Positions 5,830-59,880 of a DNA stretch of 64,000 nucleotides are shown here, piece after piece (the stretch's first letter is position 1; each line of letters begins with the position of its first letter). Origin of the DNA: Nitrosopumilus sp. (lineage in GTDB: Archaea > Thermoproteota > Nitrososphaeria > Nitrososphaerales > Nitrosopumilaceae); NCBI GenBank assembly GCA_965207075.1, contig CBDBLO010000002.1, forward strand, positions 448,001 through 512,000. Direction: 5' to 3'. The notes beneath the pieces were generated by a model. That model was not told where the DNA came from, searched no databases, and was given only the letters and a program-made list of their open reading frames with translations. A program made the translations under genes and the position numbers.

Positions 5830-5958
5830 TAGCGTGGCTTTGGGCCCGTTTTCTCTTTTCTTTTGTTTTGTGTGCATCAAAGGGCTGGGATCCGTTTCAT
5901 AACAGGGTTATGATATCAGCTCACAGTTTAAATAGTAAATAGCCAAAGATGACTTGTA

Positions 5959-6261
5959 ATGCCTATAGCAATACTGCCGGACATTGACGAGCAGAGGTGT
6001 ATTGGCTGCGCGCTGTGCGTGGAGATCTGTACAACACTGGGACCCGATGTCCTCAGAGTAAAGCCAGTCGAAGGCTGGAAGAGAGGTAAGGCATTTGTCT
6101 TTTACCCGGAGAGATGCATCTCTGACGGCGCGTGCATTGGCGTGTGCCCGACAAAGTCCATCTTCTGGATGAGGCCGATGAACTATACCGCCGGTCAGCC
6201 GGTACCGCTCCACAAGAACGGTGTCTTCGTAAACGGCTGGGCCGAAGATGCGGCACTATAA
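5959..6261 (+). CDS. 4Fe-4S dicluster ferredoxin
   Basis: CIGCALCVEIC and CISDGACIGVCP motifs. Confidence 0.92.
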   Translation: MPIAILPDIDEQRCIGCALCVEICTTLGPDVLRVKPVEGWKRGKAFVFYPERCISDGACIGVCPTKSIFWMRPMNYTAGQPVPLHKNGVFVNGWAEDAAL

Positions 6262-6303
6262 CCGCTCTTTTTCTTTCTTCTTTATTTTACTTGGACGGTC
6301 GTA

Positions 6304-15688: not shown

Positions 15689-16435
15689 TCGTTCCGGCCT
15701 GCGCTAACCTTTGCCGTGTTCTTGCGACTGCCCATTTTTTTCGCGCGCCCCCTGTCCAACTTGGCGCGACAGTAGGCCGTGCCGGCTCGTACCCGCGCGT
15801 TTGGGCCCCTTGACCGCTGTCTTGCTTTCTCCATATGTGCGAGCTACGCCCGCGCCCGTCACTTACGCAGCGGGCTTGCTTCCTAATACAAGCGGCCCGG
15901 GATTTTTCCAAAGCACCGCATGCACGTGAATCATCCTCGCGCCCTTCGTGGCGTCTGCCGGACTTGCCGCATGCGTGCGCCCTGGGCCTCTCCTGCTAGC
16001 TTGCCCGCCTCCTTCTCTCCCTCCCCCTCCCCCCCGCATCCTCCAGCTTGCCTGCCCTAGGGGGCCCGCCGACCCAGCCGACGGCTTTGGGCACCGACTT
16101 TCCTCCCCCGATGCCAGAGCCGGGTCCTCGTATCTGGGATTCGGACGCCTCCTCACCCCAGCAGAGGCGTGCTCATGGAGCCCAGGGCCGCCACTGACAG
16201 GTCATGCGCAGGGATCAGGCGGGTGCACAAGGGGGCAAAACGGGGGATCAGCCCAAGCAATCGCATGCGGCACTGCCATCTGATGCCACATCCTGCCGTC
16301 CGGATGCCTCCGCGCGCTCCATGCGTATGGGTGGCGGCAGGAGCGATCGCAAAATCCGATCTTCTGCCCGCCGGACGCCAGTGGGCCAAACGACCTGATA
16401 TGAGAAGATTTTAGAGAAGTTTAATAAATAGATCA

Positions 16436-18901
16436 TTGAAACGTCTCTTGTATTTGAAACAAAAGATGGCGCTTCCTTTCATGTTCCTACTTGTAGCTAT
16501 TCTCACCAGCGTCCCGTTTGCCTCCCAGACCTTTGCAGATCCCGATCCAGACAGGGACGGCATAATGGAGGACGAGGATCTGTGTCCCAACCTGATGGAG
16601 GACTACGAGGGCGCCTTGGACGGCTGCCCGTCCAGCTTTGTGCCCTGGTATGACGAGGACGAGGACGGCATAGAGGATCACCTCGACCAGTGCCCCGCCC
16701 TAAGGGAGCAACACAACGGCTTTGAGGACGAGGACGGCTGCCCCGACACGGCTCCCGGAAGCGGGACGGGCGGACTGCCCGACTCGGACTCGGACTCTTT
16801 CTCTGATCTGGTCGACCTGTGCCCCAGCCAGCCGGAGACGTTCAACGGCTATCTTGACCTAGACGGCTGCCCCGACTCGCCAAGCGACGGGGACAGGGAC
16901 GGCGACGGCATTGCAGACAGCCTGGATTCGTGTCCGATCGCCCCGGAGACCTACAACCGGTACCAGGATACGGACGGCTGCCCCGACACACCGGGCGATC
17001 CGTCGTTTGTCGACACCGACGGCGACGGTGTCCAGGACAAGGTTGATCAGTGCATGACGGAGCCTGAGACCATAAACGGGTACCGCGATCTGGACGGCTG
17101 CCCCGACGTCACGCCCGCCTCTGACACGACGGACACCGACGGCGACGGGATTGCGGATAGATACGACATATGCCCGACTGACCTTGAGACGTTCAACCAG
17201 TTTGCCGACTTTGACGGCTGCCCCGACTCTCCCCCTAACCTTGACAGCGCGCCAGGCGATGCCGACGGCGACAGGGTGCCCGACCACGAGGACCTGTGCC
17301 CGCTTATTCCAGAGCGGTACAACGGATTTGAGGACGACGACGGCTGCCCGGACATTCCGCCGTATACGACTGACGCCGACTCGGATCGTGACGCGATTCC
17401 CGACAGCGTGGACCAGTGCCCCCAGGCCATGGAGACCTACAACCGGTACCAGGACGACGACGGCTGCCCGGACACGGTCGGCTCTATCACGCATGTTCCG
17501 GATTCTGACATGGACGGCATATCCGACTACAAGGACCTGTGCCCCAACCAGCCGGAGACCATGAACGGCTATCTTGACCTAGACGGCTGCCCCGATAGTG
17601 TCTACGTGCCTGACCGCGACCTGGACGGCATTCCAGACTCTGCGGACGAGTGCCCCCTTGCACAAGAGACGTGGAACAGGGTGAGCGATGACGACGGCTG
17701 CCCCGACTCCAACCCGGCTACGATTATCCGCGACGCGGACGGGGACGGCATATCTGACTTTGTCGACCAGTGCCCGATAGCGGCCGAGATTGTAAACGGA
17801 TACCTTGACACGGACGGCTGCCCCGACGAGTTTGTGTCTGATATGGACAGCGACGGGGTGAGGGACGGGATGGACATGTGCCCCACCGAGCCGGAGACCT
17901 GGAACCACTACTTTGACTATGACGGCTGCCCCGACGACAGCACCTTGGAGGCCGATACCGACTTTGACGGAATACTGGACGTGGACGACCAGTGCCAGCT
18001 TGCCAGGGAGACGTACAACGGCTTTGAGGACTCCGACGGCTGCCCCGACTATCCGGGCTTTGACGCCTCGCTTGACACCGACTCAGACGGCATACCTGAC
18101 GGAGCGGACGTCTGCCCGGCGGCGCCGGAGACTTACAACTTCTTCGTAGACTCCGACGGCTGCCCGGACACGGTTCCAAGCAACAAGGGACAGCCGGACT
18201 CTGATATGGACGGAATATCCGATTATCGCGACCTGTGCCCCAACCAGCCGGAGACCATGAACGGCGTGCTTGACATGGACGGCTGCCCCGACGACTACCA
18301 GCCGCTCATGGACAGGGACACTGACGGCATACCCGACGAGTCGGACATGTGCCCGATTGCGCCGGAATCCTACAACGGCTTTGAGGACGACGATGGCTGC
18401 CCCGACACGCCGGGCACCACCAACGGTGCGATACCCGACTCCGACGGCGACGGCATCAACAACGTGAGCGATGAGTGCCCCTCGATGCCGGAGACCTTTA
18501 ACGGACTGGACGATGACGACGGCTGCCCCGACTCTAATGAGACCATGCCAGACGGCGACGGCGACGGGGTCCCGGACAACATGGACGTCTGCCCGGACCT
18601 CTCTGAGACGTGGAACCGGTACGTGGACTATGACGGCTGCCCGGACTCGATACCGTTCGCGACGCCGCAGGTGGACTCTGACGGCGACGGGTTTGCCGAC
18701 AGCGTGGACCAGTGTACGGACCTCGCGGAGACGTGGAACAAGTACAAGGACGACGACGGCTGCCCCGACTCGATACCGGAGCAGTCCAGATACAAGCATG
18801 ACAGCGACCTTGATGGAATCATAAACAGTGCGGACGTCTGCCCGAACGAGCCGGAGGACTTTGACGGCGACCTTGACACGGACGGCTGCCCTGATCCGTA
18901 G
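16436..18901 (+). CDS. Secreted thrombospondin type 3 (Ca-binding) repeat protein, paralog 1
   Basis: Signal peptide, then ~20 DxDxDGxxDxxDxCP..E.N...D.DGCPD units. Confidence 0.9.
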   Translation: MKRLLYLKQKMALPFMFLLVAILTSVPFASQTFADPDPDRDGIMEDEDLCPNLMEDYEGALDGCPSSFVPWYDEDEDGIEDHLDQCPALREQHNGFEDEDGCPDTAPGSGTGGLPDSDSDSFSDLVDLCPSQPETFNGYLDLDGCPDSPSDGDRDGDGIADSLDSCPIAPETYNRYQDTDGCPDTPGDPSFVDTDGDGVQDKVDQCMTEPETINGYRDLDGCPDVTPASDTTDTDGDGIADRYDICPTDLETFNQFADFDGCPDSPPNLDSAPGDADGDRVPDHEDLCPLIPERYNGFEDDDGCPDIPPYTTDADSDRDAIPDSVDQCPQAMETYNRYQDDDGCPDTVGSITHVPDSDMDGISDYKDLCPNQPETMNGYLDLDGCPDSVYVPDRDLDGIPDSADECPLAQETWNRVSDDDGCPDSNPATIIRDADGDGISDFVDQCPIAAEIVNGYLDTDGCPDEFVSDMDSDGVRDGMDMCPTEPETWNHYFDYDGCPDDSTLEADTDFDGILDVDDQCQLARETYNGFEDSDGCPDYPGFDASLDTDSDGIPDGADVCPAAPETYNFFVDSDGCPDTVPSNKGQPDSDMDGISDYRDLCPNQPETMNGVLDMDGCPDDYQPLMDRDTDGIPDESDMCPIAPESYNGFEDDDGCPDTPGTTNGAIPDSDGDGINNVSDECPSMPETFNGLDDDDGCPDSNETMPDGDGDGVPDNMDVCPDLSETWNRYVDYDGCPDSIPFATPQVDSDGDGFADSVDQCTDLAETWNKYKDDDGCPDSIPEQSRYKHDSDLDGIINSADVCPNEPEDFDGDLDTDGCPDP

Positions 18902-18916
18902 CCCCATGATATTGCG

Positions 18917-21322
18917 ATGATGAAGTTAATGGCAGGAGAAAGGGAGCGGAGATGTGGTGGCATGACTGTATCGGCGACAACTACAGCAAGGGCAGCGGCC
19001 GCGACACGCGCGGCGCAGCAGCAGGCTCGCGGCGGCGGCGGTAACAGCAACAGCGGCAGCAATCGCGGTAGCTCTGGCAGCTCCGGCCCCGCTACCCGCG
19101 GCAGGCGCATCGCGACCGGCTTTATGCTGGCCGCCATACTGACTGTAGGACTTGCATCGGCATCCTCCTCCATGCTGCCCCTGCCGGCGGCCCATGCCGA
19201 GTCCGTCACCGCCCTTGACATAGACGGCGACGGCGTCCCAAACTCTTCTGATCAGTGCCCGTTCCTCATGGAGGACTATGACCCGCAGTACGGCGATAAC
19301 ATAGACGGCTGCCCGGCGGACTTTGTGCCGTGGTACGACACCGACGAGGACGGAATACAGGACCACATAGACAACTGCCCTACTGTCAAGGAGACCTACA
19401 ACAGGTTTGCCGACGCCGACGGATGCCCGGACGTCTCCCCCATCACGGCGCCCAGCATGGACATTGACACCGACGGCGACGGGTTCCCGGACTATATCGA
19501 CCTGTGCCCCAACCAGCCGGAGGCGTTCAACGGGCTCAACGATCTGGACGGCTGCCCCGACGACCCGTCGATCGTATTCGACACCGACCGTGACGGGCTG
19601 TCGGACAGCATGGACGACTGCCCGGACTCCCCGGAGACGTACAATAGGTACGAGGACGGTGACGGCTGCCCGGACACGGCGCCCTTTGCGCTGCCCGAGT
19701 ACGAGTTCCCGGACACGGACTCCGACGGGATAGAGGACAGGTGGGACCAGTGCGTCGACGAGCCTGAGAACTACAACGACTACCTTGACTGGGACGGCTG
19801 TCCGGACACGCCGGGTGCGGAGTCCCTCGAGCAGCGGGATGAGGACTACGACGGAATCCCCGACGACGTGGATGAGTGCCCCCTTGAGCGGGAGAACTAC
19901 AACCGCATAGCCGATGACGACGGCTGCCCGGACGTCCTTGAGCTTGGATTCAACGGCGACATTGACCGGGACGGCGTCTCAGACCATGACGATGCCTGCC
20001 CGTTCAACGCGGAGGTATACAACATGTACGAGGACGACGACGGCTGCCCGGACATCGTGGCCTACAAGGCCGCCACCAATATCGTAGACTCGGATTCTGA
20101 CGGCATACCAGACGGCATTGACCTTTGTCCCGTCCAGCCTGAGACCATGAACGGATTCCAAGACCTCGACGGCTGCCCGGACAGCCTGCTCTTGAATGCG
20201 GACACCGACGGTGACGGACTGCTTGATGTAGACGACCTCTGCCCGTCCGAGCAGGAATCCTACAACGGCTTTGAGGATACAGACGGCTGCCCGGACAAGA
20301 CGTCCACGTCGCCCTCCGTGTTTGCGTTTCCCGATATGGACTCCGACGGGATAGATGACAGGTGGGACCAGTGTATAGACGAGCCTGAGAACTACAACGA
20401 CTACCTTGACTGGGACGGCTGCCCGGACATGAGGGCGGCCACCTCCATCATTATACCAGACGGAGATCATGACGGCATACCCGACGAGTCGGACATGTGC
20501 CCCGATGTGGCCGAGCGGTACAACGGGTACCAGGACGAGGACGGCTGCCCCGAGTCAGTCCCCAGTGACTATGTGGGCGATGCCGACTCTGACGGCATCC
20601 CGGACAATGCCGACGAGTGCCCCAACTCCCCGGAGACGTACAACAGGGTGGATGACGACGACGGCTGCCCGGACACGCTTGCCGACAACAAGTCCATATC
20701 TGACACGGACGGTGACGGACTACACGACTCGCTTGACCTCTGCCCGCTGCAGCCGGAGACCGTAAACGGTGTTCTTGATGCCGACGGCTGCCCTGACGAC
20801 CTGCTGACGGTGCTTGATGCCGACTCTGACGGCATCCCGGACAATGCCGACGAGTGCCCCAACTCCCCGGAGACGTACAACAGGGTGGATGACGACGACG
20901 GCTGCCCGGACAGCACGCAGACCGTACTTCCGCAGTACACGTTCCCCGACGTCGACTCTGACGGGGTGGACGACCGGTGGGACCAGTGCGTCGACGAGCC
21001 TGAGAACTACAACGACTACCTTGACTTTGACGGCTGCCCGGACACTCCGGCGGCCGAGTCCGTCACGCCGCTCATGATTGACTCTGACGGCGACGGATAC
21101 GTTGACATGGTCGACATGTGCCCGATCTCGCCTGAGACGTGGAACAAGTACCTAGACTTTGACGGATGCCCCGACTCGGTACCGGAGCAACAGAGGTTCG
21201 GGCACGACATTGATCTTGACGGCATACTGAACGACGCGGACCAGTGCCCGACCGAGCCGGAGGACTATGACGGCTTTGAGGATACAGACGGCTGCCCGGA
21301 TGACGGCAGCGGCGCACCCTGA
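18917..21322 (+). CDS. Secreted thrombospondin type 3 repeat protein, paralog 2
   Basis: Same repeat; hydrophobic signal ending in AHA; true start uncertain. Confidence 0.88.
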   Translation: MMKLMAGERERRCGGMTVSATTTARAAAATRAAQQQARGGGGNSNSGSNRGSSGSSGPATRGRRIATGFMLAAILTVGLASASSSMLPLPAAHAESVTALDIDGDGVPNSSDQCPFLMEDYDPQYGDNIDGCPADFVPWYDTDEDGIQDHIDNCPTVKETYNRFADADGCPDVSPITAPSMDIDTDGDGFPDYIDLCPNQPEAFNGLNDLDGCPDDPSIVFDTDRDGLSDSMDDCPDSPETYNRYEDGDGCPDTAPFALPEYEFPDTDSDGIEDRWDQCVDEPENYNDYLDWDGCPDTPGAESLEQRDEDYDGIPDDVDECPLERENYNRIADDDGCPDVLELGFNGDIDRDGVSDHDDACPFNAEVYNMYEDDDGCPDIVAYKAATNIVDSDSDGIPDGIDLCPVQPETMNGFQDLDGCPDSLLLNADTDGDGLLDVDDLCPSEQESYNGFEDTDGCPDKTSTSPSVFAFPDMDSDGIDDRWDQCIDEPENYNDYLDWDGCPDMRAATSIIIPDGDHDGIPDESDMCPDVAERYNGYQDEDGCPESVPSDYVGDADSDGIPDNADECPNSPETYNRVDDDDGCPDTLADNKSISDTDGDGLHDSLDLCPLQPETVNGVLDADGCPDDLLTVLDADSDGIPDNADECPNSPETYNRVDDDDGCPDSTQTVLPQYTFPDVDSDGVDDRWDQCVDEPENYNDYLDFDGCPDTPAAESVTPLMIDSDGDGYVDMVDMCPISPETWNKYLDFDGCPDSVPEQQRFGHDIDLDGILNDADQCPTEPEDYDGFEDTDGCPDDGSGAP

Positions 21323-21498
21323 CCTGCCTGCCGCCTCTGGATGCTGGCTGTCGCGGCAGCGGCCGAAATGAACTTCATAAATGGCCCGCCACGGGCCGAC
21401 GCAAGTGGTTCTTGGCGATGATTGCGTGGCGGCGGCATGCGCCGTCACGCGTTTTGTCGATCAGGCCGCGATGATTCATCACGATACTTAATAAACAC

Positions 21499-24384
21499 GT
21501 GATAACGAGAGATGTTGTTGGAGATATGCATTCCCTAGGCATTCCTATAACAATGATCATTTTAATCCTGAGCATTGGAATGCTCCCTTCCGGCGTCGAC
21601 ACCGCGTACGCAAACCAGGACGTAGACACGGACAGGGACGGCGTCCCGGACGCGCTGGACCACTGCCCCCACCTGCCTGAGGACTACGATCCTCAGTACG
21701 GCCATAACATAGACGGCTGTCCGGCGGACTTTGTGCCGTGGTACGACACCGACGAGGACGGGATACAGGACCATCTGGACGGCTGCCCCACCCTGAAGGA
21801 GACCTACAACAACATATCTGACCAAGACGGCTGCCCCGACCAGCTGCCGGGACAGGGCCCGTTCTCCATTGCGGACGCGGACTCTGACGGATATCCTGAC
21901 TTTATGGACCTGTGTCCGCACCAGCCGGAGACCTTCAACGGGGTCGACGACCGCGACGGGTGCCCGGACGACCTGCGAGAGGTTACCGACCGCGACCAGG
22001 ACGGGATATCCGACTCGCTCGACCTCTGCCCGCTGCAGCCGGAGGTGTACAACTTTGTCGCCGACGAGGACGGCTGCCCCGACGCCGTGCCCGACGGGCA
22101 GCCCAACCCGTACCAGTTCCCCGACGTCGACGGCGACGGCATAGACGACAGGTGGGACCAGTGCCCGTCAGAACCCGAGAACTACAACGGCGTGCTTGAC
22201 TGGGACGGGTGCGTGGACAGGCCGGGCTCGGAATCAAACCCGGTCGTCGACTCTGACTATGACTCCATACCGGACGGGGAGGACCAGTGCCCGACTGAGC
22301 GCGAAAACTACAACAAGTTCCAGGACGACGACGGCTGCCCCGACTCTCCGCAGATCTCGATATCCGGCGACGCCGACTATGACGGGGTGAGGGACGCCGC
22401 GGACAAGTGCCCGTTTGCGCGCGAGGTGTACAACATGTTCCAGGACGACGACGGCTGCCCCGACTCGCTGTATGACGCGAGGCCGGCGTACGACTCGGAC
22501 GGCGACACGATAATTGACGCGATTGACCTGTGCCCCAACCAGCCGGAGACCGTAAACGGATATCTTGACACGGACGGCTGCCCCGACTCGATTGACGCGA
22601 GCGCCGACGCGGATTCAGACGGGATACCCGACTCTGCCGACGCGTGCGCGACGGAGCCTGAGACCTACAACCACTTTCAGGACGACGACGGCTGCCCCGA
22701 CGCGCTCGGCACTGCAGTCTCACCAGGCGCCACCGCAACCTCGGCGTTCATACTTGCCGACGCGGATTCAGACGGGATAGACGACAGGTGGGACCAGTGC
22801 CCGTCAGAACCCGAGAACTACAACGGCGTGCTTGACTCAGACGGCTGCCCCGAGGTGCCCGGCGTGTCCGGCACGGGGGTGGTGGACAGCGACTTTGACC
22901 TGATACCAGACGCGATCGACAGGTGCCCGCTCCTGGCAGAACGGTACAACGGCTTTGAGGATGCGGACGGCTGTCCGGACACCGTTCAGCATGTTGCGAC
23001 CGGCGACGCCGACTACGACCTGGTGCCTGATGGCGTGGACCAGTGTCCTAACGCAAGGGAGACGTACAACCGCTACCAGGACGACGACGGCTGCCCCGAC
23101 GCGATATATGACGCGAGGCCGGCGTACGACTCGGACGGCGACACGATAATTGACGCGATTGACCTGTGCCCCAACCAGCCGGAGACCGTAAACGGATATC
23201 TTGACACGGACGGCTGCCCCGACTCGCTTGGCGCGAGCGCCGACGCGGATTCAGACGGGATACCCGACTCTGCCGACGCGTGCGCGACGGAGCCTGAGAC
23301 CTACAACCACTTTCAGGACGACGACGGCTGCCCCGACGCGCTCGGCACTGTAGTCTCCCCCGGAGTCATAACCACGTCGTTCATACTTGCCGACGCGGAT
23401 TCAGACGGGATAGACGACAGGTGGGACCAGTGCCCGTCAGAACCCGAGAACTACAACGGCGTGCTTGACTCAGACGGCTGCCCCGAGGTGCCCGGCGTGT
23501 CCGGCACGGGGGTGGTGGACAGCGACTTTGACCTGATACCAAACAGGAGTGACGCATGCCCGTTCCTGCCGGAACGGTACAACGGCTTTGAGGATACGGA
23601 CGGCTGCCCGGACATCATACAGTATGCCGCCCCGGTCGGCGACGCCGACTACGACCTGGTGCCTGACAATATAGATCAGTGTCCGAACGCAAGGGAAACG
23701 TACAACCGCTACCAGGATGCGGACGGCTGCCCCGACGGGGTACCCGACTCTAGAACCATTGTAGACAGCGACGGCGACGGACTCTATGACGTGATCGACT
23801 CATGCCCCAACCAGCCGGAGACCGTAAACGGCGTGCTTGACAGGGACGGCTGCCCCGACCAGATGCTGTCTGCGCACGATGCCGACTACGACGGCATCCC
23901 TGACAGCGCCGACGCATGCCCGATCGAGCCCGAGGTGTACAACCTCATTGACGATACCGACGGCTGCCCCGACACGGCTGCCGTCCAGACCCCCACTGAG
24001 ATGGCCCTGCCTGACGCCGACGGCGACCTCATACACGACGCCAGGGACAACTGCCCCGACGAGCCGGAGAACCTCAACGACTACCTTGACTGGGACGGCT
24101 GCCCCGACGTGAGGCCGGTTCTGAGCCCGATCCTCGACAGGCCCGACAGCGACGGCGACGGATACTTGGATGACGCGGACCTGTGTCCGACAAGCCCCGA
24201 GGTGTGGAACAAGTACAACGACCATGACGGCTGCCCCGACACGGCCCCCGAGCAGCAGAGGTTCGGGCACGACAATGATCTTGACGGCATACCGGACGGA
24301 GAGGACCAGTGCCCGGCCGAGCCGGAGGACTATGACGGCTTTGAGGATACGGACGGCTGCCCCGACGCGGCGGCTACCGGCTGA
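21499..24384 (+). CDS. Secreted thrombospondin type 3 repeat protein, paralog 3
   Basis: Same repeat; signal ending in AYA; internal duplication with a ~635-bp period. Confidence 0.9.
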   Translation: MITRDVVGDMHSLGIPITMIILILSIGMLPSGVDTAYANQDVDTDRDGVPDALDHCPHLPEDYDPQYGHNIDGCPADFVPWYDTDEDGIQDHLDGCPTLKETYNNISDQDGCPDQLPGQGPFSIADADSDGYPDFMDLCPHQPETFNGVDDRDGCPDDLREVTDRDQDGISDSLDLCPLQPEVYNFVADEDGCPDAVPDGQPNPYQFPDVDGDGIDDRWDQCPSEPENYNGVLDWDGCVDRPGSESNPVVDSDYDSIPDGEDQCPTERENYNKFQDDDGCPDSPQISISGDADYDGVRDAADKCPFAREVYNMFQDDDGCPDSLYDARPAYDSDGDTIIDAIDLCPNQPETVNGYLDTDGCPDSIDASADADSDGIPDSADACATEPETYNHFQDDDGCPDALGTAVSPGATATSAFILADADSDGIDDRWDQCPSEPENYNGVLDSDGCPEVPGVSGTGVVDSDFDLIPDAIDRCPLLAERYNGFEDADGCPDTVQHVATGDADYDLVPDGVDQCPNARETYNRYQDDDGCPDAIYDARPAYDSDGDTIIDAIDLCPNQPETVNGYLDTDGCPDSLGASADADSDGIPDSADACATEPETYNHFQDDDGCPDALGTVVSPGVITTSFILADADSDGIDDRWDQCPSEPENYNGVLDSDGCPEVPGVSGTGVVDSDFDLIPNRSDACPFLPERYNGFEDTDGCPDIIQYAAPVGDADYDLVPDNIDQCPNARETYNRYQDADGCPDGVPDSRTIVDSDGDGLYDVIDSCPNQPETVNGVLDRDGCPDQMLSAHDADYDGIPDSADACPIEPEVYNLIDDTDGCPDTAAVQTPTEMALPDADGDLIHDARDNCPDEPENLNDYLDWDGCPDVRPVLSPILDRPDSDGDGYLDDADLCPTSPEVWNKYNDHDGCPDTAPEQQRFGHDNDLDGIPDGEDQCPAEPEDYDGFEDTDGCPDAAATG

Positions 24385-40842: not shown

Positions 40843-41219
40843 ATGGACACAAAGGTACTACTAGCGGCAACCGTGCTGTCGGTCTTCTCTTTGCCGCCGT
40901 GGGCGCCGCGTCGATCGCACCTGCCCAGTATATGGGCAACGTCGACAGTGACGGAGATCCCACCCCTCCTACGCTTGAGGAACCGTTGATCGAGGAACCG
41001 TTGATCGAGGAACCGTTGATCGAGGAACCGTTGATCTAGGCTCGGGAGAGGATCGGGCCCTCAGAGGCCAATCCCGCATCCGGATCGGGAACTCCATACC
41101 TTGACGCCGACGGCGTCGTGGGCGCGTCCGCCATGGCGGGCGCCGTCTTTGGCGGTATAGCAGGAGCCTTCTTCTTGAGGGGCCGTTCTGGCAAATACGC
41201 AGCACCGGGAGGTGGATGA
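40843..41219 (+). pseudogene. Degenerate tandem duplicate of the downstream putative amoZ
   Basis: Aligns end to end with 41351-41683; 1-bp deletion near codon 16, GAGGAACCGTTGATC x4 and an in-frame TAG at 41037-41039. Confidence 0.9.
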
Positions 41220-42312: not shown

Positions 42313-42834
42313 CTAGTTTCCCGGCGGTAAAAAGTCCGAGTCCTTTGACGTGTCGTAGTCCTTTGACGTAAACACGGCCTTGTAGTGGGCCCCATCGGTA
42401 AACGGGTGGTTTGTAAAGTGCGGTGACGGCTGGTCGTCAACAAATATCATTGACTTGTCCTGTACCATGTCTCTGAGCGGAAAGTCCCACATCCACAAAA
42501 AGTGGCCGATCTCAAACGGGTATTCCTCCTCCCACTCTGCATATATCGTTCCGTCGTCGGACAGCGTATACATTGTTCTCTGACATTCGTCGGTATTCCC
42601 GATGTTGGCAGGAATCTCCGCCTCTATCCCGTCCACTATCAGCTCGAGCGTGGCGGTGATCGTGTAGGGCGTCACGCGGTCGTTGATGCAGGCCTTGAGC
42701 GGGTTGTCCGCGTTGACCACATACTGTATGGAGGCGCTGGCGGCCGCCACCGATATACCGATTATGGCCGTAATTATCAGAAAGCGTATCGTCTTTTTGC
42801 GCTTGTACGGATCACTGGTGCCGGGCCAGATCAT
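42313..42834 (-). CDS. Membrane-anchored hypothetical protein in the amo neighbourhood
   Basis: N-terminal TM helix; IPANIG..ECQR.MYT..DDG.I motif. Confidence 0.8.
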   Translation of the reverse strand: MIWPGTSDPYKRKKTIRFLIITAIIGISVAAASASIQYVVNADNPLKACINDRVTPYTITATLELIVDGIEAEIPANIGNTDECQRTMYTLSDDGTIYAEWEEEYPFEIGHFLWMWDFPLRDMVQDKSMIFVDDQPSPHFTNHPFTDGAHYKAVFTSKDYDTSKDSDFLPPGN

Positions 42835-43110: not shown

Positions 43111-43470
43111 TCACTTGACGCCGCTGTAGTCAACCTCTATCGTGTCAAGCTCGTCTTGGTGGTCGGCCAGATAGTACGTGATCGCGTCCGAGTCGATCTC
43201 AAGCCACTCCGACTTGCCGCCGTACGTAAGCCAGTCTTCCACGTAGAGTCCGCGCGGCCCCGACACCCTGACCAACATTCTTGCCGGCCCGCCGCCACCG
43301 AATCCCGGCAGATGGAAGGGAAGTCTCAGCACCTTGTCCCTCCTCTGGCCCTGGATGTTTGCCCTGTATGCGTCTGAACGGAATTCTACCGTTCCTGTAA
43401 AATAGCTCTGCGCAATGTCCAGCCTGATTATCTTAAAGTTCAGCAACGCGCGCGCATGCAGCCTCCTCAA
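43111..43470 (-). CDS. Hypothetical protein downstream of amoB
   Basis: Clean ORF with protein-like composition. Confidence 0.75.
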   Translation of the reverse strand: MRRLHARALLNFKIIRLDIAQSYFTGTVEFRSDAYRANIQGQRRDKVLRLPFHLPGFGGGGPARMLVRVSGPRGLYVEDWLTYGGKSEWLEIDSDAITYYLADHQDELDTIEVDYSGVK

Positions 43471-43530: not shown

Positions 43531-44100
43531 TTAGATCACTTGCCAGGGTCTCGTGGCAAACGTAATCACATACCCGACGCCTATAATGATAGACTGGTAT
43601 GCGATGTTCACGTATGGAATCGGCTTGAGTATGTTGTCGCCTTCCACGACCACTGTCTGGCCCGGACCAAGTCCTGGCCCGACGCTGGCCACGTTGAGCT
43701 GCGTGTGTACGTGGTACACTCCGGCCTCAAGCGCCTTTGCAGACAGCGTATAGTCTATCTGGCTGTTTCCAGGAATGTCAAAGACGTTGCCCGGGGGATC
43801 CCTAGCTAGCATCTCCCATCTGTTGCCGGCGTTCGTGGACTCTGAGAAGATGGACAGCCATCCTCTGAGGTCTCTCTCCACGAGACTGACCAGCGTTCCT
43901 GTCAATGTGAGGGTCTCGCCAGTCTGTAGAGACTGCCTGTTGAACGTCTCATCCTCGATTCTGATGAACCGGCTCTGGAGCTGTGCCTGGACGCCGTGCG
44001 CCTCTGCGGTAGGAATGACGGCCTCGACCCAGTCGAAGCCAAGTGTTCCCAGCGCAAGCACTGCGGCCAGTCCTAATACGAAAATCTTCTTTTCGAACAT
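43531..44100 (-). CDS. amoB: Ammonia monooxygenase subunit B
   Basis: AEA-HGVQAQLQSRF, YHVHTQ and ATRPWQVI. Confidence 0.96.
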   Translation of the reverse strand: MFEKKIFVLGLAAVLALGTLGFDWVEAVIPTAEAHGVQAQLQSRFIRIEDETFNRQSLQTGETLTLTGTLVSLVERDLRGWLSIFSESTNAGNRWEMLARDPPGNVFDIPGNSQIDYTLSAKALEAGVYHVHTQLNVASVGPGLGPGQTVVVEGDNILKPIPYVNIAYQSIIIGVGYVITFATRPWQVI

Positions 44101-44456
44101 AGTATCCCTTGCTATATGGGGGAATAGCATACCGTTATATGTTTTTCCTGAGGCTTGTGCCTAGCGAGGGGCGTCTGCCAGCCCCTCATGCCGCCCGGCG
44201 TCCTTCCGTATCCGATCTTACGTGTGCGCCGGGAACTGGTTTGCGGCGGGGATGCCGGTTCCTGCCGCGTCCCGGCCGGAGTATGGGCGTCTGCAGGCGG
44301 GCCAGGCGGCATTGGCGCGCCTGACGGCAGTGTATTCCGGGATGCAGGTGCGCACGCATGGTCCAGGTCCTGCCGGCAAGCAGGCCGGGCACAAGATGCG
44401 AGGGCGGGAATCTGATTGGCGTCAAATACTGCTGGACTGCGGCAGCAACGCCACGC

Positions 44457-46313
44457 CTACGTCTTGGATATGTCGCGAGGAAAGAACAGGTCCACCAGCC
44501 AGTCGAACCCGACGCGCACCTTCTTCTCGGTGGTTGGCAGCATTGAGAGGTAGTAGTGCTTCCATACAAACCACGCCGCAAGCCCGTGCATTCTCACTCC
44601 CTTCATCAGGGCCACGCCCTCCATGTTCCCTATCTTGGCCACGAACCCGTCCGCGTCGTATGTAAATTTGTCCTGCTTCTCTATGCCGCGTATCCTGTTT
44701 GCAAGGTTGTTGGCGACAACTTTTGCCTCCTGCGCTGCGTGCTGGGCTGTAGGCGGGTACGGCGTCCCGTCGCGCGGATCCGTGATGAATGCGCAGTCGC
44801 CCAGCGCAAAGATGTCCGGGTTGTTCTTCAGGCTCAGGTTCGAGTTTACAACGACGCGCCCGGACTTGTGGTGTTCGGTGTCCAGATTCGCCACGATCTC
44901 GTCCACCATGCCGCCGGCCGCCCAGATGAGTGTCTCGGTTTCTATGACGGTCCCGTCGTTGAGGGTCGCCACGCCGCCGGAGTATTCGGTCAGCCTTACG
45001 TTGATGTGTATCGTAACGCCCGCCTTTGTGAGCGCCGACATGGCGTGCGCGCTCAGGGCGCTCACCTCCGGAAGTACGACGCTTGACGATACCAGGATCA
45101 CCCTTATTGACGACATAGGTATGTTGTGGTAGTACTTTCTGACCGAGTCGCGCACAAACGAGTTCAGCTCGCCCACCGTCTCCACGCCGGAAAAACCCCC
45201 TCCCACGACCACGAAGGTCATCAGCCTGGCCTTGGCGGCCGGGTCCTGCTCCAGATCGGCGCCCTCGAGCGCCCCGATTGCATGGTTTCTGATCTTGATG
45301 GCGTCTTCTAGTTTTCTGATCTTGAGCGCATTGCGCTTGACGCTCTCGTTTCCAAAAAAGTTGGCCTTCATTCCAGACGCTATGACCAGATAGTCGTACG
45401 GCAGCACGCTAGTACTATCCGACTCGGTCCGGCGTATGGTCACCTGCCTCTCCTTGAGGTCTATTGCGGTTACGCGGGCCTGGTAGAATCGAGCCCTATG
45501 GCAGAACTTCCTGATGGGCGTCGCGATATGCCTCGGTTCTATGGAGCCCGTGGCCATCTCCGGCAGCATTGGCGTGTGCAAGAAAAAGTTTGACTCGTTT
45601 ACGAGGCCTATGCTCACGTCGACGTCGTCGTGGAACTTTTTTTGCAGGCGGTTCAGTACCCCGACGCCGGCGTACCCCCCGCCCAGTATCAGCACGCGCC
45701 TCATTGACTGCGAGCCCTTCCCGTGCACGTGCGCTATGTGGGCCTTTCGTGTTGCGCTGTTGAAGAACTCCACATCGCACTCGCGGCATATGTAATTGGC
45801 GCCAAACCTGCGCGTTAGGAAGGAGGTCACGGATCCCATTATCAGGCCCCATAGCAGGTGTATGCCCAACGATTCGAGTATGACTGTGGTAAAGTCCAAC
45901 TGTTCCGCGTGCGCGTCGGTGGCAAGCGACGGGGACATTATCAGGTATATCATGGGCATTGCAAATATGATGAATGCCATGCCGCCTGCGAGCAGCCCGA
46001 AGATCAGGCCCATTGAAGGGCGCGAGATGTCCATCTTGAGCGCGCGGTGCAGTATAACGCCTGTCACGACCCCTATGATGGTGGACACAAAGATGTGCAG
46101 CAGGAATCCCGCCCCGTCGTCGTGCCCGTCCGACTCTCCGGCCGGCAGCACCTGCGACAATATCTCGTGCGACAGTTCCTCAAAGGAGCTGTAGAAGATG
46201 GCGGGTACGTGCATGGCCAGCGCGCCCGCAATCGAGCCGAGTATCACAAACGTGACCTCCTTCCGCAATAGGAAGTTTACCTTGCAGTCGACCTCCTCAA
46301 CGCTATCGCTCAA
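44457..46313 (-). CDS. Type II NADH:quinone oxidoreductase fused to an N-terminal ~4-TM His-containing module and a C2H2 zinc finger
   Basis: GGGYAG, YDYLVIASG, VVVGGGFSGVE, WAAG, FALGD and quinone-site-type PTAQHAAQ; CRECx12HIAHVH linker. Confidence 0.85.
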   Translation of the reverse strand: MSDSVEEVDCKVNFLLRKEVTFVILGSIAGALAMHVPAIFYSSFEELSHEILSQVLPAGESDGHDDGAGFLLHIFVSTIIGVVTGVILHRALKMDISRPSMGLIFGLLAGGMAFIIFAMPMIYLIMSPSLATDAHAEQLDFTTVILESLGIHLLWGLIMGSVTSFLTRRFGANYICRECDVEFFNSATRKAHIAHVHGKGSQSMRRVLILGGGYAGVGVLNRLQKKFHDDVDVSIGLVNESNFFLHTPMLPEMATGSIEPRHIATPIRKFCHRARFYQARVTAIDLKERQVTIRRTESDSTSVLPYDYLVIASGMKANFFGNESVKRNALKIRKLEDAIKIRNHAIGALEGADLEQDPAAKARLMTFVVVGGGFSGVETVGELNSFVRDSVRKYYHNIPMSSIRVILVSSSVVLPEVSALSAHAMSALTKAGVTIHINVRLTEYSGGVATLNDGTVIETETLIWAAGGMVDEIVANLDTEHHKSGRVVVNSNLSLKNNPDIFALGDCAFITDPRDGTPYPPTAQHAAQEAKVVANNLANRIRGIEKQDKFTYDADGFVAKIGNMEGVALMKGVRMHGLAAWFVWKHYYLSMLPTTEKKVRVGFDWLVDLFFPRDISKT

Positions 46314-46939
46314 CTCAACCTACAGCCTCCGTTATCGCGGTGATTATATTTCCTTGTCGTACTGCCGTTTGGGCGGCTAGTTCCAAAACAAGCTCCCCCA
46401 CTGGGTCGGGCCGTTTGGAGCTGCTGTTGCCGTTGATGTCACTCTCAGCGTCATTGCCGCGTAAAATATAGCGCCGTTTGATATAACCATAGCGACGACT
46501 GTTCATTGCGGCACGGGGCATCTCTCAGTGCATAGTCATGGTGTGCCGTCTTGCGTGCCAGACGCCTGCAGGCCCAAACGTCCGTCTGTTGGCTCGGGGG
46601 CGATCCGGGCCGAGGGTTTGGAAACAAAAGTGACGTCGCGCTACGGCATATGCCTGCAACAGACACGCGTGCGAGTCTCCGACTCTGACCGGTTTTGTCG
46701 TTTGAATCTGCAGCGGGTGTCTGGCATGTCCCCGCATATGCTTGGACCGGTTGCGCCGCCCGTCGTTGGATCTGCCGCCGCTGCCGGCAAACCTTGGCTG
46801 CAGTCACCTCCCCCTCTTCCCCCGTTACTGGATGCGATCCCCCACGACTAACGTGCCGCGTACGCCCCGGCAGGATTCACGGCGCGGCTCAGGCTGCCCC
46901 GGGCCCGTGCCTGAAGGCGGAGCGCTTGCGGTGTCCAAT

Positions 46940-47100
46940 GATTAACATTGATGATTAACATCAAACTTGGTGGTTGTTTGTAATGTTGTATTGCATATTT
47001 TATGGTATAAAATACTAAAAATTTCATACCTTGTTTGCAAAAATGTAAGTCTTACACTATTCCTCGTGCAATTGCATTCCTGTACTTTATATGTAAGATA
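46940..47100 (+). promoter_or_regulatory. AT-rich amoC upstream region with a TATA-like box and four palindromes
   Basis: TTTATAT at 47086-47092; inverted repeats at 46948-46964, 47004-47030, 47044-47056 and 47067-47076. Confidence 0.55.
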
Positions 47101-48413: not shown

Positions 48414-48566
48414 TTGCAAGAAGGGTTAACCTTCAACCTTTTTCATTTTCTCTTGTTTTGGGTGCTGCGTCACCGTTCTCCCCTTGGGCACGGGCAGGAC
48501 ATGCCTCATGAAACTGCCATTGCGCTTTGATGCGAGGCATGCCTGGAACCATGTGGCCGGCAGAGT

Positions 48567-49645
48567 TGTTGTGCAAAAAGTAGGCCCCCGTAGGATCGGG
48601 CGTACAAGTCAGCTACTAACGGACCGGTCATCAAAGACCGCCCAAAGAGACTGCCGGGTAAGTCACGCCAGCATTTGGACTGGGATCGGGAAGCGGGTCC
48701 CCGCTTCCGGGGCAGCAAAGGATCTTGGAACTTCCACCATGCGCGTGCAGGAGCTGGGCAATACTCCGTACGACTCGGATTATGCGTGCCGATGGGCAGT
48801 TCGCGCTCCTATATGCGAGGGCAGGATAGGCGGTAACCGCACCTGTCAGAGACGGCCGGTCTTGGCCATACTCGCCGCAGGAAGGTTGAGGAGGAGGAGG
48901 AGAAGAAGAAGGAATCGCGATATTAGTTACACCGCGGCATACTGTGTTGAAGAAGGGCGGCGCCGCGGATCCCCCTGCAGCAGGGTCGGAGGTGCAGGCG
49001 GGCGCGTCACTGGCGTGCACCTCGGCACCATGTGACGTGTGGACTGGCACACCACGAAGGATCCGCGCTTTTCAAGCAGAGCCTCGTTACATGCATGGAC
49101 GATGCCCCTGTGCGCGCCACGTATGTGACGCTCCTGGAATCCGTGATGGCTCTCAGGCCTGCAGCTAAGAGGCTTGGCGCACCTGCGTCCGTGCTGTCTG
49201 ACGACGGGCCCTGCCCTGCGGGACAGAATGGCAGAAGAGGGGAAAGGGGGAGGAGGGGAAGGGGGCAGGTCCGTCGTCCTTGGGGGCCGCTTGGGGGCTA
49301 TGCCGCGCCTGGGGGCGGCTCTGGGAGGGACGCGAGGCGCGGCACCGTCCTTGGGGGCCGCTTGGGGGCTATGCCGCGCCGGCTGCTGCCCGGCCGTGCG
49401 GGCAACAGACGGGCGGCAAGCCGGTGCGGTTCCATCGCAGCCTGGAAGCGGAGATCCTCTGATGGCCTCGGGTGGTGCATGGATCTACGACGAGTCGGGG
49501 CTACGCTTCGCTGGATGTCGACGACTACGAGACGTCGCTGGTGCCACTCAGGCACAAGGAATGATCGGGGCGATCAGAAGCATCGATCCCAAGTGGGCGG
49601 GTGACACCTACGACCCTGGGGAAAAGAAGACCCATTTTTCATACA
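48567..49645 (+). mobile_element. Full-length decayed IS481-family element between amoX and amoA
   Basis: Left end TGTTGTGCAAAAAGTAGGCCCC, right end ...ATTTTTCATACA; frameshifted transposase remnants in the expected order: AKDLGTSTMRVQEL, VDWHTTKDPRF, LVTCMDDA, GAPASVLSDDG, ARPCGQQTGGKPVRFHRSLEAEI, SLDVDDYET. Confidence 0.8.
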
Positions 49646-49739
49646 ATGCCCATGATCCTAGGCGGGCCGACTCTCTGTATGACTGGAGTGCGTTCCTGAT
49701 TCTAAAATTTTATATACCTATCCTTAATTCAATAAACCA

Positions 49740-50390: not shown

Positions 50391-50619
50391 GAGAAATCCC
50401 ACCCCATTTTCATTTTCTCTATTTTTCTTGCTCAGTCGCGCCGTGCGTGCTCGGGCCGGTTGAAAATGCGCGCGCAAAGCGGGATCCGGGGTTATTCTGG
50501 CCGTGAGCCTGCTGTCGATTCGGGTATGAGTTTGAGTCGTGTGTGATTCGTTTTTTTTTACCAATAACTCAACCGTTTTATTTTCAATGTGTAATTACCA
50601 GTGTCCTGATGGCCCGTTG

Positions 50620-51516
50620 ATGCGCAGACAGGTTGCGTCGTCGGGATACCGTCCGAGGCCGTTTGTAAAGTGGGCCGGCGGCAAGCGCCAGATATTGCCC
50701 GCGGTGAGCGGCGGCATGCCGGAGTCGTTTGGCGGGTACTTTGAGCCCTTTCTGGGAGGAGGCGCCCTGTTCTTCCATGTTGCGCCGGCAGGCTCAAAGG
50801 GCGGCAAGGACAGCCGCGACGGCGCGCATCCATTCCACATATCAGACCTGAATCGGGAGCTTGTCTTGGCATATCAGATGATCCGCGACCGTCCTGAGGA
50901 TCTCCTGCGCGCGCTACGCGACCACGAGGCCGGCTACAGGGCGGACCCCGAGTCGTACTATTACAGCGTACGTGACGGCTATGACCCTGGCAGCGCCGGC
51001 GACATCGATACTGCGTCCAGGCTGATATTCCTGAACAAGACGTGCTTTAACGGACTGTACCGCGTCAACAGCCGCGGAAAATTCAACGTGCCGCTTGGCC
51101 GGTATGCAAACCCGACCATAGCCGACGAGCAGAACATACTTGCCGTAAGCGAGATACTGAACCTGAGCAACGTCCACGTATCGTGCGAGGACTTTGGGGC
51201 CGTGGCGCGCAAGGCGCGCAGGGGGGACTTTGTGTACTTTGATCCGCCGTACATGCCGGTCAGCAGGACTGCCAGCTTTACCAGGTACACGTGCGGTGAC
51301 TTTGGGATTGAGGACCAACGGAGGCTGGCCGATCTGTGCGTCACGCTTGACGAGATGGGATGCCACGTGCTGCTGTCAAACTCGGACTCTGGCGTCATAA
51401 GCGAGATGTTTGCAAGGGATGAGTGGACCGTAGAGCGCGTCAGCGCAAGCCGCTGCATCAACTCGGATTCTGGTAGGCGCCTCGGGCATACCGAGCTGCT
51501 GATTAGAAACTATTGA
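50620..51516 (+). CDS. Dam-family (D12) DNA adenine methyltransferase; no adjacent endonuclease
   Basis: KWAGGK, EPFLGGG, FNGLYRVN..G.FNVP, DPPY and ELLI.NY motifs. Confidence 0.92.
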   Translation: MRRQVASSGYRPRPFVKWAGGKRQILPAVSGGMPESFGGYFEPFLGGGALFFHVAPAGSKGGKDSRDGAHPFHISDLNRELVLAYQMIRDRPEDLLRALRDHEAGYRADPESYYYSVRDGYDPGSAGDIDTASRLIFLNKTCFNGLYRVNSRGKFNVPLGRYANPTIADEQNILAVSEILNLSNVHVSCEDFGAVARKARRGDFVYFDPPYMPVSRTASFTRYTCGDFGIEDQRRLADLCVTLDEMGCHVLLSNSDSGVISEMFARDEWTVERVSASRCINSDSGRRLGHTELLIRNY

Positions 51517-58467: not shown

Positions 58468-59880
58468 TTAGGAAGTAAGTATCTCTGCCACCACTGGGAT
58501 TACCTCCCAGAGTGCGATATAGTCACCGGACTCCTGCATCTCTGCAGCCACTTCGTCGGTGTACAGACCGTGTATGTTGATGGCGGGGTGTGCAATGCTG
58601 TTCATTCCCATCGGGGGAACAGCGTCACTCGGGTTGCCCAGCGCGTACGCATAGGATGGAACAGGCTCTGGTAGGACTCCCTTCTCAACCAGAACCGGGT
58701 TCAGGTTGAACGGGTCGCCGGCCACGAATACTGTGGCGGCTCCTGAAAAGATTGCCGCATAGTCGTGGTTGACTGCTGCATATACACCCGGCTCGTCAAA
58801 CACGAGGTCAACGATCATGCCCTGAGAACCGCCAAGCAGCCATGTCTCGGTTGCTGCGGACTGGACCCTGTTGCCCTGTGTCACCCTGTCGAGAATCTCT
58901 CCCACTATGTGGAAGAAGACCGGCTCGTTGCCCTGGTTCTCTATGAACAGCCTTACGTGCTGATCGTTCTCTACGAAGAGAAGCTGTGACTGGTGCTGCT
59001 TTAGCTCGATGCCGTTCCAGGGTTGTGCAACAAAGATGTTCTTGTTTGTGTCACCGTTGACGAGCAGGTTGTGGGCCATGTTCGGAACGTATCCAAACTG
59101 GTACCCGTTTACAACCGTTCCCGTGTTCTGGTGCTTGAACATTGCGGCCTGATCAAAGTTGCCTTCCGGGGTCAGGTAGAGCTGGTTGTACTGGAGCTGG
59201 AACTCTAGCGCGTCTGCGTCATAGAACATGCGCTTGAGCTCGCCGCTGCCGCTGGTCTTCTCGACCATCAGCTTTTTGTAGCCGTTTGCAGGATCGACGA
59301 TTGCAATCCCATACATGCCTGAGAGCACGTGCTGGTCCATGGCCGCAAGCTTGACGCCAGAGCAGTGGTACTTGAACATACCTGCCGCTTCTGCAATAAA
59401 GCAGTACTGGCTTGTCTCACCCGGGTTTACGGACTCAAAGGCTCCCGCGGTTATCTGGGACGAGTGCATGTCGTTGCCGTGTGCAACCGGTTCGTCGTCG
59501 GGAATGGTCAGAGTCATCTTGATCACGTCGCCCTGCATGACCCTGATTGTGGGTCCAGGCACCATGCCGTTGAACGTCATGGCGTGGTACGTCTTGCCTC
59601 CCATTATGGGGAGCTCGACGCTCTCGGCGGTCAGATCAAAGTTGTGAACTGTCCTTCCTGATGTCTCCAATACGCCACAGTCAGTCTCTGCAAAGGCCTC
59701 CGGCATCATCAGCTTCAGTCCGCCCATCTGATGAATCTGCTCCATCACGTCGGCGTCCATCTGCGTGAGATCCAAAGACTGTCCAGAGATTTGGGTCTGC
59801 GTGTATGTACTTCCGAATAAGGTCGCGCCCATCACTGCCACTGCCGCGACAGTAAAGAGCATGCTGATACGCTTATTCAT
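58468..59880 (-). CDS. nirK: Copper-containing nitrite reductase (archaeal NirK)
   Basis: Cu-ligand motifs HGNDMH, YHC, HVLSGM, FHIVG and VNHD; signal peptide. Confidence 0.9.
   Translation of the reverse strand: MNKRISMLFTVAAVAVMGATLFGSTYTQTQISGQSLDLTQMDADVMEQIHQMGGLKLMMPEAFAETDCGVLETSGRTVHNFDLTAESVELPIMGGKTYHAMTFNGMVPGPTIRVMQGDVIKMTLTIPDDEPVAHGNDMHSSQITAGAFESVNPGETSQYCFIAEAAGMFKYHCSGVKLAAMDQHVLSGMYGIAIVDPANGYKKLMVEKTSGSGELKRMFYDADALEFQLQYNQLYLTPEGNFDQAAMFKHQNTGTVVNGYQFGYVPNMAHNLLVNGDTNKNIFVAQPWNGIELKQHQSQLLFVENDQHVRLFIENQGNEPVFFHIVGEILDRVTQGNRVQSAATETWLLGGSQGMIVDLVFDEPGVYAAVNHDYAAIFSGAATVFVAGDPFNLNPVLVEKGVLPEPVPSYAYALGNPSDAVPPMGMNSIAHPAINIHGLYTDEVAAEMQESGDYIALWEVIPVVAEILTS

Follow-up and report, generated by a model that had tools for sequence, protein, structure and literature searches.

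Why should a gene for a type II NADH dehydrogenase (NDH-2) lie inside the ammonia monooxygenase (AMO) gene cluster of an ammonia-oxidizing archaeon (AOA)? The question is raised by a 64,000-nucleotide stretch of Nitrosopumilus sp. DNA, here called the window (GenBank assembly GCA_965207075.1, contig CBDBLO010000002.1, positions 448,001 to 512,000 of the forward strand). The gene encodes a membrane module and a C2H2 zinc finger fused to an NDH-2 core, and stands between the divergent amoB and amoC, in the orientation of amoB, with 356 bp from its stop codon to the amoB ATG and 802 bp from its start to amoC (Table 1). Since the usual order in Nitrosopumilaceae is amoA-amoX-amoC-amoB (PMC6790972, PMC7848895; literature is cited throughout from excerpts), a gene that separates amoC from amoB departs from the rule. 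A first-pass annotation of the window, which had described the intact 618-aa gene ∼360 bp upstream of amoB and had correctly taken amoB and amoC to be normal neighbors, proposed that the protein could supply AMO with reductant. Our analysis points instead to an AOA-wide, membrane-anchored NAD(P)H:quinone oxidoreductase, the gene for which was probably relocated once into the amo cluster, its position there most likely being incidental.

The core was identified as NDH-2 by several comparisons. Residues 206–530 match Pfam Pyr_redox_2 (135.4 bits, cut-off 26.1) and residues 556–614 match NDH2_C (33.7 bits, cut-off 27.7), with the membrane-facing helices of the latter at 578–591 and 595–610 in the AlphaFold model (mean pLDDT 81). 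The top PDB sequence match is 9mqy (E 1.2e-44), and the best 13 of the 31 PDB sequence matches are NDH-2 or NDH-2-like, ahead of FSP1 and SQR. The top Foldseek matches are all NDH-2 (TM-score 0.83 by target length, rmsd 2.8 Å). Both Rossmann motifs are present, GGGYAG (211–216) for FAD and GGGFSG (371–376) for NAD(P)H, and their glycines (G211/G213/G216 and G371/G373/G376) are invariant in 180/180 fusion sequences; counts out of 180 refer to this set throughout, and counts out of 200 to a family set at the coenzyme site that is redundant, some library proteins (P numbers) being the same as genomic loci (L numbers). AQHAAQ (523–528) aligns with AQIAIQ of Caldalkalibacillus thermarum (4nwz), a pattern (AQxAxQ) that we take to be the NDH-2 quinone-site motif; its final position is Q in 9/180 fusion sequences and R in 153/180, AQHAxR being commonest. 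The complete NDH-2 core read by the first-pass annotation is thus borne out. SQR, CoA-disulfide reductase and FSP1 were considered and rejected, with E values of 1e-11 or weaker versus 1e-44 to 1e-24 for NDH-2 chains; the NCBIfam cut-offs for SQR and CoA-disulfide reductase were not reached.

NADH as the coenzyme, assumed in that annotation, is doubtful. S409, at the end of the second Rossmann strand, aligns with the coenzyme-discriminating E198 of C. thermarum, and this position holds S, A, N, Q, H or Y but D or E in 0/200 family sequences, so that the NADH-selecting acidic residue is absent. E198 explains the NADH preference of the C. thermarum enzyme, and a Glu-to-Gln change moved an Agrobacterium enzyme towards NADPH (PMC5220320). 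Because the equivalent position is never acidic (200/200), use of NADPH by the fusion family is plausible on sequence grounds.

The N-terminal module has four hydrophobic helices, as first supposed, both by hydropathy and in two AlphaFold models (TM1 ∼20–37, TM2 66–90, TM3 99–125 and TM4 144–166, TM denoting transmembrane). Loop charges across the 180 sequences assign the N-terminus, loop 2 and the C-terminus of the module to the inside and loops 1 and 3 to the outside; because this positive-inside pattern puts the C-terminus of the module inside, the zinc finger and flavin domain are predicted to be cytoplasmic. Four TM histidines had been highlighted, of which two are conserved, H73 (GFLLH) in 180/180 and H152 (GIHLLWG) in 176/180, while H35 (ALAMH; 132/180) and H89 (ILHR; 120/180) are variable. 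M34 is kept in 167/180. The columns of M34, H73 and H152 have median distances of 16, 17 and 16 residues to the closest basic residue on the cytoplasmic side, which by this register sets the three level in the outer leaflet. The same residues recur in 29 aligned stand-alone modules (H73 28/29, H152 28/29, M34 23/29). At most one cofactor site would fit this pattern, a candidate His2-Met metal site or a single haem, and a two-haem wire would not. A di-haem cytochrome b or b561, for which two pairs of conserved TM His at both faces are needed, was rejected, since the sole conserved pair, H73 and H152, lies in the outer leaflet.

Between TM4 and the FAD domain, C176, C179 and H192 are present in 180/180 sequences and H197 in 178/180. 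The CxxC-x12-H..H finger noticed earlier is therefore there, but with its spacing refined to H192-x4-H197, H197 being the conserved fourth ligand. At E≤0.1, zf-C2H2 is matched by 35/62 members of the family, but the protein from the window is not among them, and the modeled fold is a beta-hairpin plus helix; the element is classed here as a C2H2 zinc finger, a predicted Zn binder. The membrane module scores 15.5 bits (E 0.019) against DUF6789 (PF20587), below the gathering cut-off of 27.1, and is for that reason called DUF6789-like; DUF6789 is matched at E≤0.1 in 14/62 family members, and some stand-alone relatives reach the cut-off. The module is also YqhR-like, again below the cut-off. A hidden Markov model search with the module returned 550 representatives at E≤0.001, among them forms that stand alone, occur in tandem or carry a finger tail. 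A word-based search for homologues of the N-terminal 200 aa came back empty (0/385 candidates), a Foldseek search of the module gave no match at E≤0.001, and the best match in a VIA fold search (WbaP, Z 7.9, rmsd 4.2 Å over 127 residues) was within background, a null that means no clear match and from which novelty of the fold does not follow. In L011 a stand-alone copy of the module (6624–7181, +) stands 2.5 kb away from the fusion, and tandem two-module proteins occur in the representative library (P0211, P0214, P0253); together these hint that the module may work as a pair.

The fusion is widespread among AOA, whereas its linkage to amo is rare. The best 120 of 1762 homologues are all 576–672 aa long and cover 89–100% of the query. 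From a GTDB scan in which 114 relatives were confirmed and 80 loci kept, the full fusion was found in 61/80 loci, across Nitrosopumilaceae and Nitrososphaeraceae, the remainder being contig-edge fragments or a shorter stand-alone NDH-2. Genes of the amo cluster accompany it in 3/80 loci, and none were seen in the other 77. Even among the 64 loci with at least 1 kb on both sides (the reach of amoB's distance here), only L002 and L003 are linked, both as amoC-gene-amoB; the third linked locus, L001 (gene-amoB), is on a contig that ends 241 bp upstream of the fusion gene. L001–L003 are the three closest relatives (87–97% identical), so that the linkage, though narrowly distributed, is not peculiar to this assembly.

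Elsewhere the gene keeps varied company. By their neighbors, the 37 fusion loci flanked by at least 3 kb sort into 16 groups, the largest comprising 20 loci joined by chaining. The commonest context is aminotransferase, fusion, ArsR-like helix-turn-helix protein, with the class I/II aminotransferase 17–79 bp upstream and the ArsR-like gene downstream; DoxX, cupredoxins, DUF7482 and DUF3179 are other recurrent neighbors. The amo-linked copies fall in one six-row tip clade inside Nitrosopumilaceae (SH-aLRT 100) in a quick IQ-TREE maximum likelihood tree of 98 cores (SH-aLRT support only, midpoint-drawn, L057 omitted as too short, 19 of the 120 P proteins included), and long branches lead to this clade. 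Because they form one tip clade, the linked copies are attributed to one event. Their sister proteins are P0006–P0011 (57–69% identical). A recent foreign origin was rejected: the GC content of 44001–47000 (0.57–0.60) is similar to the remainder of the window, and the relatives are all Nitrososphaerota/Thermoproteota or unclassified archaea. The shorter NDH-2 without the membrane module (L034, L038, L040, L041, L043–L045, L047, L059 and L064, mostly Nitrosotenuis) has a fixed context of its own, e.g. beside aspS-gatCAB in Nitrosotenuis (gene names read from the sequences, with no family search), and also lacks the acidic coenzyme residue.

Is the amo position functional for the fusion? Archaeal promoters follow a BRE/TATA consensus, and amoB keeps an element of this kind at 44147–44128, in which 20/20 columns are invariant compared with 11–16 per 20 in the remainder of the spacer. 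Because amoB retains this element, the two genes are likely transcribed independently, with the proviso that the promoter elements here are consensus readings and not mapped promoters. For promoters, conservation across relatives was the guide, since a scan for sigma-70 promoters and terminators leaves archaeal promoters out of account and its counts were at chance level (3 vs 2.2 expected; 2 vs 3.1).

Selective constraint differs sharply between the fusion and its neighbors. Against L003, the ratio of nonsynonymous to synonymous substitution (dN/dS) is 0.40 for the fusion gene (95% confidence interval (CI) 0.29–0.55), 0.03 (0.01–0.06) for amoA, B, C, X and Y combined and 0.12 for dam plus prx; the value for the fusion is ∼10–13 times that of the amo genes. 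Within the fusion, the N-terminal module reaches 0.64 (CI 0.40–1.08) and the core 0.28 (CI 0.19–0.45; 0.09–0.28 overall). The GC content at synonymous third positions, which is weak evidence only, is 0.77 for the fusion, near recJ, serS and rps3ae (0.79–0.82), and 0.52–0.67 for six amo genes; a codon adaptation index computed against the amo genes did not separate the classes (0.64–0.75 for all). The fusion thus shows neither the synteny across Nitrosopumilaceae (3/80 loci, one clade) nor the amo-like constraint by which an AMO subunit or partner would be recognized.

The cluster itself is loose in this lineage and tolerates insertions, as seen from a transposase in L003, a 1326-bp spacer, a broken amoZ-like duplicate (both described below) and a breakpoint in L001. 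The L003 gene is an rve transposase (5614–6600, +), presumably IS481-like, 53 bp upstream of amoA and absent from the window and L002. In L001, the first 52 bases differ from the window, marking a breakpoint or insertion ∼190 bp upstream of the fusion (junction at window 46502); these bases had no match in the other sequences compared.

Nor do published AMO preparations point to the fusion. By cryo-EM, each protomer of N. maritimus AMO comprises eight subunits, from which even the in-cluster Nmar_1504 is missing, and no NDH-2 is described among these subunits in the available text, from which the words ‘NADH’ and ‘quinone’ are absent (10.64898/2026.08.31.748207). The identity of one subunit, AmoH, was undetermined in that report, but it is described as loop-rich and is in this respect unlike a flavoprotein. 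No NDH-2 appears in the excerpted blue native gel tables of PMC10030591 (main text; supplements, including the synteny tables, lie outside this scope). Given separate promoter elements, weak constraint, a loose cluster and an eight-subunit AMO described without NDH-2, the amo position is probably not functional for the fusion.

On the reading that we favor, the gene, its own promoter included, would have moved once, in the ancestor of a single small lineage of Nitrosopumilaceae, to a place between the diverging promoters of amoB and amoC. Chance relocation in a genome bearing insertion sequences, which the first-pass annotation had itself offered as an alternative, fits best. By homology and fold the core would bind FAD and a nicotinamide coenzyme like other NDH-2s and, by analogy with the family, would pass hydride from NAD(P)H, probably including NADPH, through FAD to the membrane quinone, which in AOA is menaquinone, without proton pumping. 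The four predicted TM helices would serve as an anchor for a cytoplasmic finger and flavin domain. H73, H152 and often M34 could together hold one cofactor in the outer leaflet, either a metal ion such as Cu(I) bound by His2-Met or a bis-His haem, for sensing or outward electron transfer, and the zinc finger may be a structural or regulatory hinge. Because complex I is without NuoEFG in N. viennensis (PMC7785015), the enzyme could give such a cell a direct outlet from NAD(P)H to quinone, a valve used in redox balance or stress, although a stress role, which it may have, is suggested by the neighboring genes only. Quinol so produced could reach AMO via the common pool in every AOA with the gene, so that linkage would be unneeded and a place beside amoB mechanistically neutral, i.e. 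a tolerated insertion.

Several observations weigh against an incidental position. At dS up to 0.17, the window and at least three species-level genomes still share the arrangement; purifying selection acts on the core, with the gene's frame and conserved ligands intact; and co-orientation with amoB makes read-through possible. In the wider clade that includes P0006–P0011, outer loop 3 is shorter (33 vs 46 residues) and the outer loops carry more His, changes that could be adaptive. The linkage may also be older and wider than it appears here and might extend to P0006–P0011, and the GTDB scan, which kept 80/114 relatives, missed at least one genome with the gene, that of N. ureiphilus (P0065). 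As to the coenzyme, the single-residue rule for NADPH has known exceptions (PMC11670749).

An alternative that we regard as possible but unlikely treats the protein as a trans-membrane reductase, like Listeria Ndh2 or cytochrome b561, in which electrons would run from NAD(P)H through FAD and quinone to the outer H73/H152/M34 site and on to Cu(II), cupredoxins or oxidized thiols. Such a reductase might aid copper loading beside amo, but this reading concerns how the whole family works and does not conflict with a chance position. It gains from the conservation of H73 and H152 in fusions and stand-alone modules alike, their common outer-leaflet depth with M34, the recurrent cupredoxin, DoxX and ArsR-like neighbors and the stand-alone module near the fusion in L011. 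However, one His pair provides no two-haem wire across the membrane, H152 is replaced by N in 4/61 full-fusion loci and M34 by F, I or Y in 12/61, and no known membrane protein that binds haem or metal was matched in the fold search.

Co-option for AMO priming, the closest to the original proposal, appears improbable. It holds that the fusion is expressed in coordination with amo and supplies quinol, for starting or sustaining AMO, from stored or organic NAD(P)H when hydroxylamine electrons are short. The linkage is kept in 3/3 closest relatives, the gene is co-oriented with amoB, the outer loops are altered in this lineage, and AOA complex I has no NAD(P)H-binding module (PMC7785015); quinol is moreover the proposed reductant of particulate methane monooxygenase (pMMO) and of bacterial AMO (PMC6288188, 10.64898/2026.08.31.748207), and NDH-2 feeds the quinone pool in a methanotroph model (PMC6288188). 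These points are offset by the 77/80 unlinked loci, the single origin, promoter-like elements on both the fusion and amoB, the ∼10–13-fold higher dN/dS and the absence of the fusion from the eight AMO subunits described (10.64898/2026.08.31.748207). Steady-state AMO electrons are, furthermore, assumed to come from hydroxylamine oxidation (PMC10432482); spending NAD(P)H made by reverse flow on a steady feed would be wasteful, and only start-up or mixotrophic use would be sensible. A dedicated reductant supply for AMO is therefore not upheld. In a combined version, which seems equally improbable, an NDH-2 that accepts NADPH and is connected to a His2-Met (copper) or haem site at the outer face was recruited to the amo cluster with its outer loops remodeled, and primes AMO with quinol or delivers Cu(I) to it, from NAD(P)H; if true, archaeal AMO would for the first time have a reductant or metal-loading module linked to it genetically.

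We consider it very improbable that selection on the copy in this lineage is relaxed and the gene heading to decay, with its position irrelevant. The dN/dS of the N-terminal module, the long branches to the clade, the loss of the C-terminal tail and part of loop 3 and the already broken amoZ-like duplicate nearby would suit such a course, but the frame is intact in the window and in L001–L003, the GxGxxG motifs, D506, the AQxA motif and the Cys/His ligands are kept, and the core dN/dS stays at 0.09–0.28. An assembly artefact as the source of the linkage is refuted by independent assemblies, the window being collinear with L002 (a 2.1-Mb single-record chromosome) over 19 kb at 94% and with L003 at 86–92%, and has a negligible probability.

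The fusion matters as a concrete, directly assayable candidate link from NAD(P)H to the AOA quinone pool, being a widespread and expressible single chain, and the DUF6789-like module gains its first enzyme context. The amo linkage is of interest mainly as a departure from Nitrosopumilaceae amoA-X-C-B synteny, and it cautions that a gene within a cluster need not encode a member of the complex; only co-expression or association with AMO, if proved, would make the linkage important. The protein is apparently an undescribed variant of a known NDH-2 enzyme kind. The open-access literature yielded no account of the fusion architecture or of the amo insertion, and no paper joining AOA, type II NADH dehydrogenase and Nitrosopumilus; most subscription papers and supplements fall outside this search. 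For DUF6789 it held one unrelated paper, and no function is known. The words ‘transmembrane’, ‘fusion’ and ‘zinc’ do not occur in the available part of a 2025 preprint on NDH-2 phylogeny, and ndh2 is noted in Thermoproteota metagenome-assembled genomes with the architecture not given in the excerpt (PMC10367259).

Table 1. Features of the fusion gene and the surrounding amo cluster (window coordinates).
Feature	Position	Strand	Basis or remark
NDH-2 fusion gene, 618 aa	44457..46313	-	TTG start, no internal stop; domains and fold matches
Membrane module, fusion aa 10–170	45804..46286	-	Hydropathy, loop charges, depth register, conservation
C2H2 zinc finger, C176-x2-C179-x12-H192-x4-H197	45723..45788	-	Between TM4 and FAD domain; predicted cytoplasmic
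NDH-2 core, fusion aa 201–618	44460..45713	-	Pfam, PDB sequence and fold matches, conservation
Candidate promoter of fusion gene, GTCGCTATGGTTATATCAA	46478..46496	-	Invariant in window, L001, L002 and L003; putative function
Second TATA-like TATAATC of fusion gene	∼46342–46348		∼30 nt before TTG
amoB BRE/TATA-like element, GAAAAA-CATATAA	44128..44147	-	35–47 nt upstream of amoB ATG
amoB, 189 aa from ATG	43531..44100	-	Pfam Monooxygenase_B and NCBIfam AmoB matches
amoC, 187 aa	47116..47679	+	Pfam AmoC
amoX, 121 aa	48048..48413	+	Between amoC and amoA; name from gene order in PMC6790972; no family match
amoA, 216 aa	49740..50390	+	Pfam Archaeal_AmoA, 387 bits
Probable amoZ, 110 aa	41351–41683	+	Size, order and two-gene spacing as in PMC10030591
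Probable amoY, 89 aa	41892–42161	+	Size, order and two-gene spacing as in PMC10030591
173-aa open reading frame (ORF) between amoY and amoB	42313–42834	-	Probable AmoE/Nmar_1504 counterpart by position
119-aa ORF between amoY and amoB	43111–43470	-	Probable AmoE/Nmar_1504 counterpart by position

The names amoY, amoZ and AmoE are positional only, because PDB sequence searches with AmoA and the AmoZ-like protein found no match. Judging by position, the 173-aa and 119-aa ORFs, conserved in L001–L003, probably correspond to AmoE, which has a single TM helix, and Nmar_1504, which is soluble (10.64898/2026.08.31.748207). AmoX is 98–99% conserved in L002 and L003, and the probable amoY has a dN of 0 against L001–L003.

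Directly upstream of the probable amoZ lies a second, amoZ-like gene (∼40843–41218, +; 75% DNA identity), which is open in L002 (15163–15483, -; 54% aa identity) and broken in the window by a frameshift, four copies of a 15-bp unit and an in-frame stop. The amoX-amoA spacer (48414–49739) contains no recognized gene and has ORFs of up to 192 aa; it has a 35-bp direct repeat and is kept at 81–84% identity in L002 and L003. A tandem near-palindromic 11-bp repeat, ATGATTAACAT (46938–46961, period 13), lies at the margin of the AT-rich region upstream of amoC; it is conserved in L002 and L003 and is a possible regulator site. A D12-class adenine DNA methyltransferase gene directly follows amoA (50539–51516, +) and is conserved in the same two loci. 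Farther afield, the window carries three tandem large genes (16436–24384, +; 821, 801 and 961 aa) of Asp-rich repeats, the first of which, the only one scanned, matches thrombospondin type 3; an rve transposase (14586–15911, -); a 402-aa ORF (1677–2885, -) that is tyrosine recombinase-like by eye, with no Pfam match at E≤0.001; and a multicopper-oxidase-family gene (58468–59880, -; Cu-oxidase_3 match), which we take to be probably the AOA nirK.

Compared with known systems, the fusion shares with NDH-2s (the mycobacterial 9mqy, 4nwz of C. thermarum, 5na1 of S. aureus and yeast Ndi1) the two-dinucleotide fold, two GxGxxG motifs, an AQxAxQ-type motif and NDH2_C, its core being ∼28% identical to them, and the AlphaFold core aligns with the mycobacterial and C. 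thermarum enzymes at a TM-score of 0.83–0.88 by target length. Known NDH-2s are monotopic, however, whereas the fusion adds ∼200 N-terminal residues with four TM helices and the finger, and has Ser in place of their NADH-selecting Glu/Asp (E198). The module shares G..H...G...G and H..xG...G motifs with DUF6789/YqhR-like four-helix proteins, and stand-alone, tandem or finger-tailed DUF6789-like relatives of ∼180–230 aa align over its whole length, but in AOA it is fused to an enzyme. The Ndh2 of Listeria presumably has a fused membrane domain as well, C-terminal and unrelated to the AOA module. In Listeria and other Firmicutes, Ndh2 likewise provides a side route from NADH through a dedicated quinone to outside acceptors (10.1101/2023.01.13.524026); its partners dmkA, eetB and pplA were not identified around the AOA gene, for which no by-name search was made. 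The redox-arm model of pMMO likewise allows NDH-2 to reduce the quinone pool of a copper membrane monooxygenase, but there NDH-2 is one of several pool-feeding dehydrogenases, the redox-arm mode fitted the data poorly, and genomic linkage of NDH-2 to pMMO is not described in the excerpts (PMC6288188). Lastly, the AMO accessory subunits (AmoX/D, Y/F, Z/G, E and H) are, like the fusion, membrane proteins with genes inside the amo cluster or beside it; AOA in general conserve AmoX, Y and Z, with synteny in Nitrosopumilaceae (PMC10030591), whereas the fusion is patchy, mobile and faster evolving.

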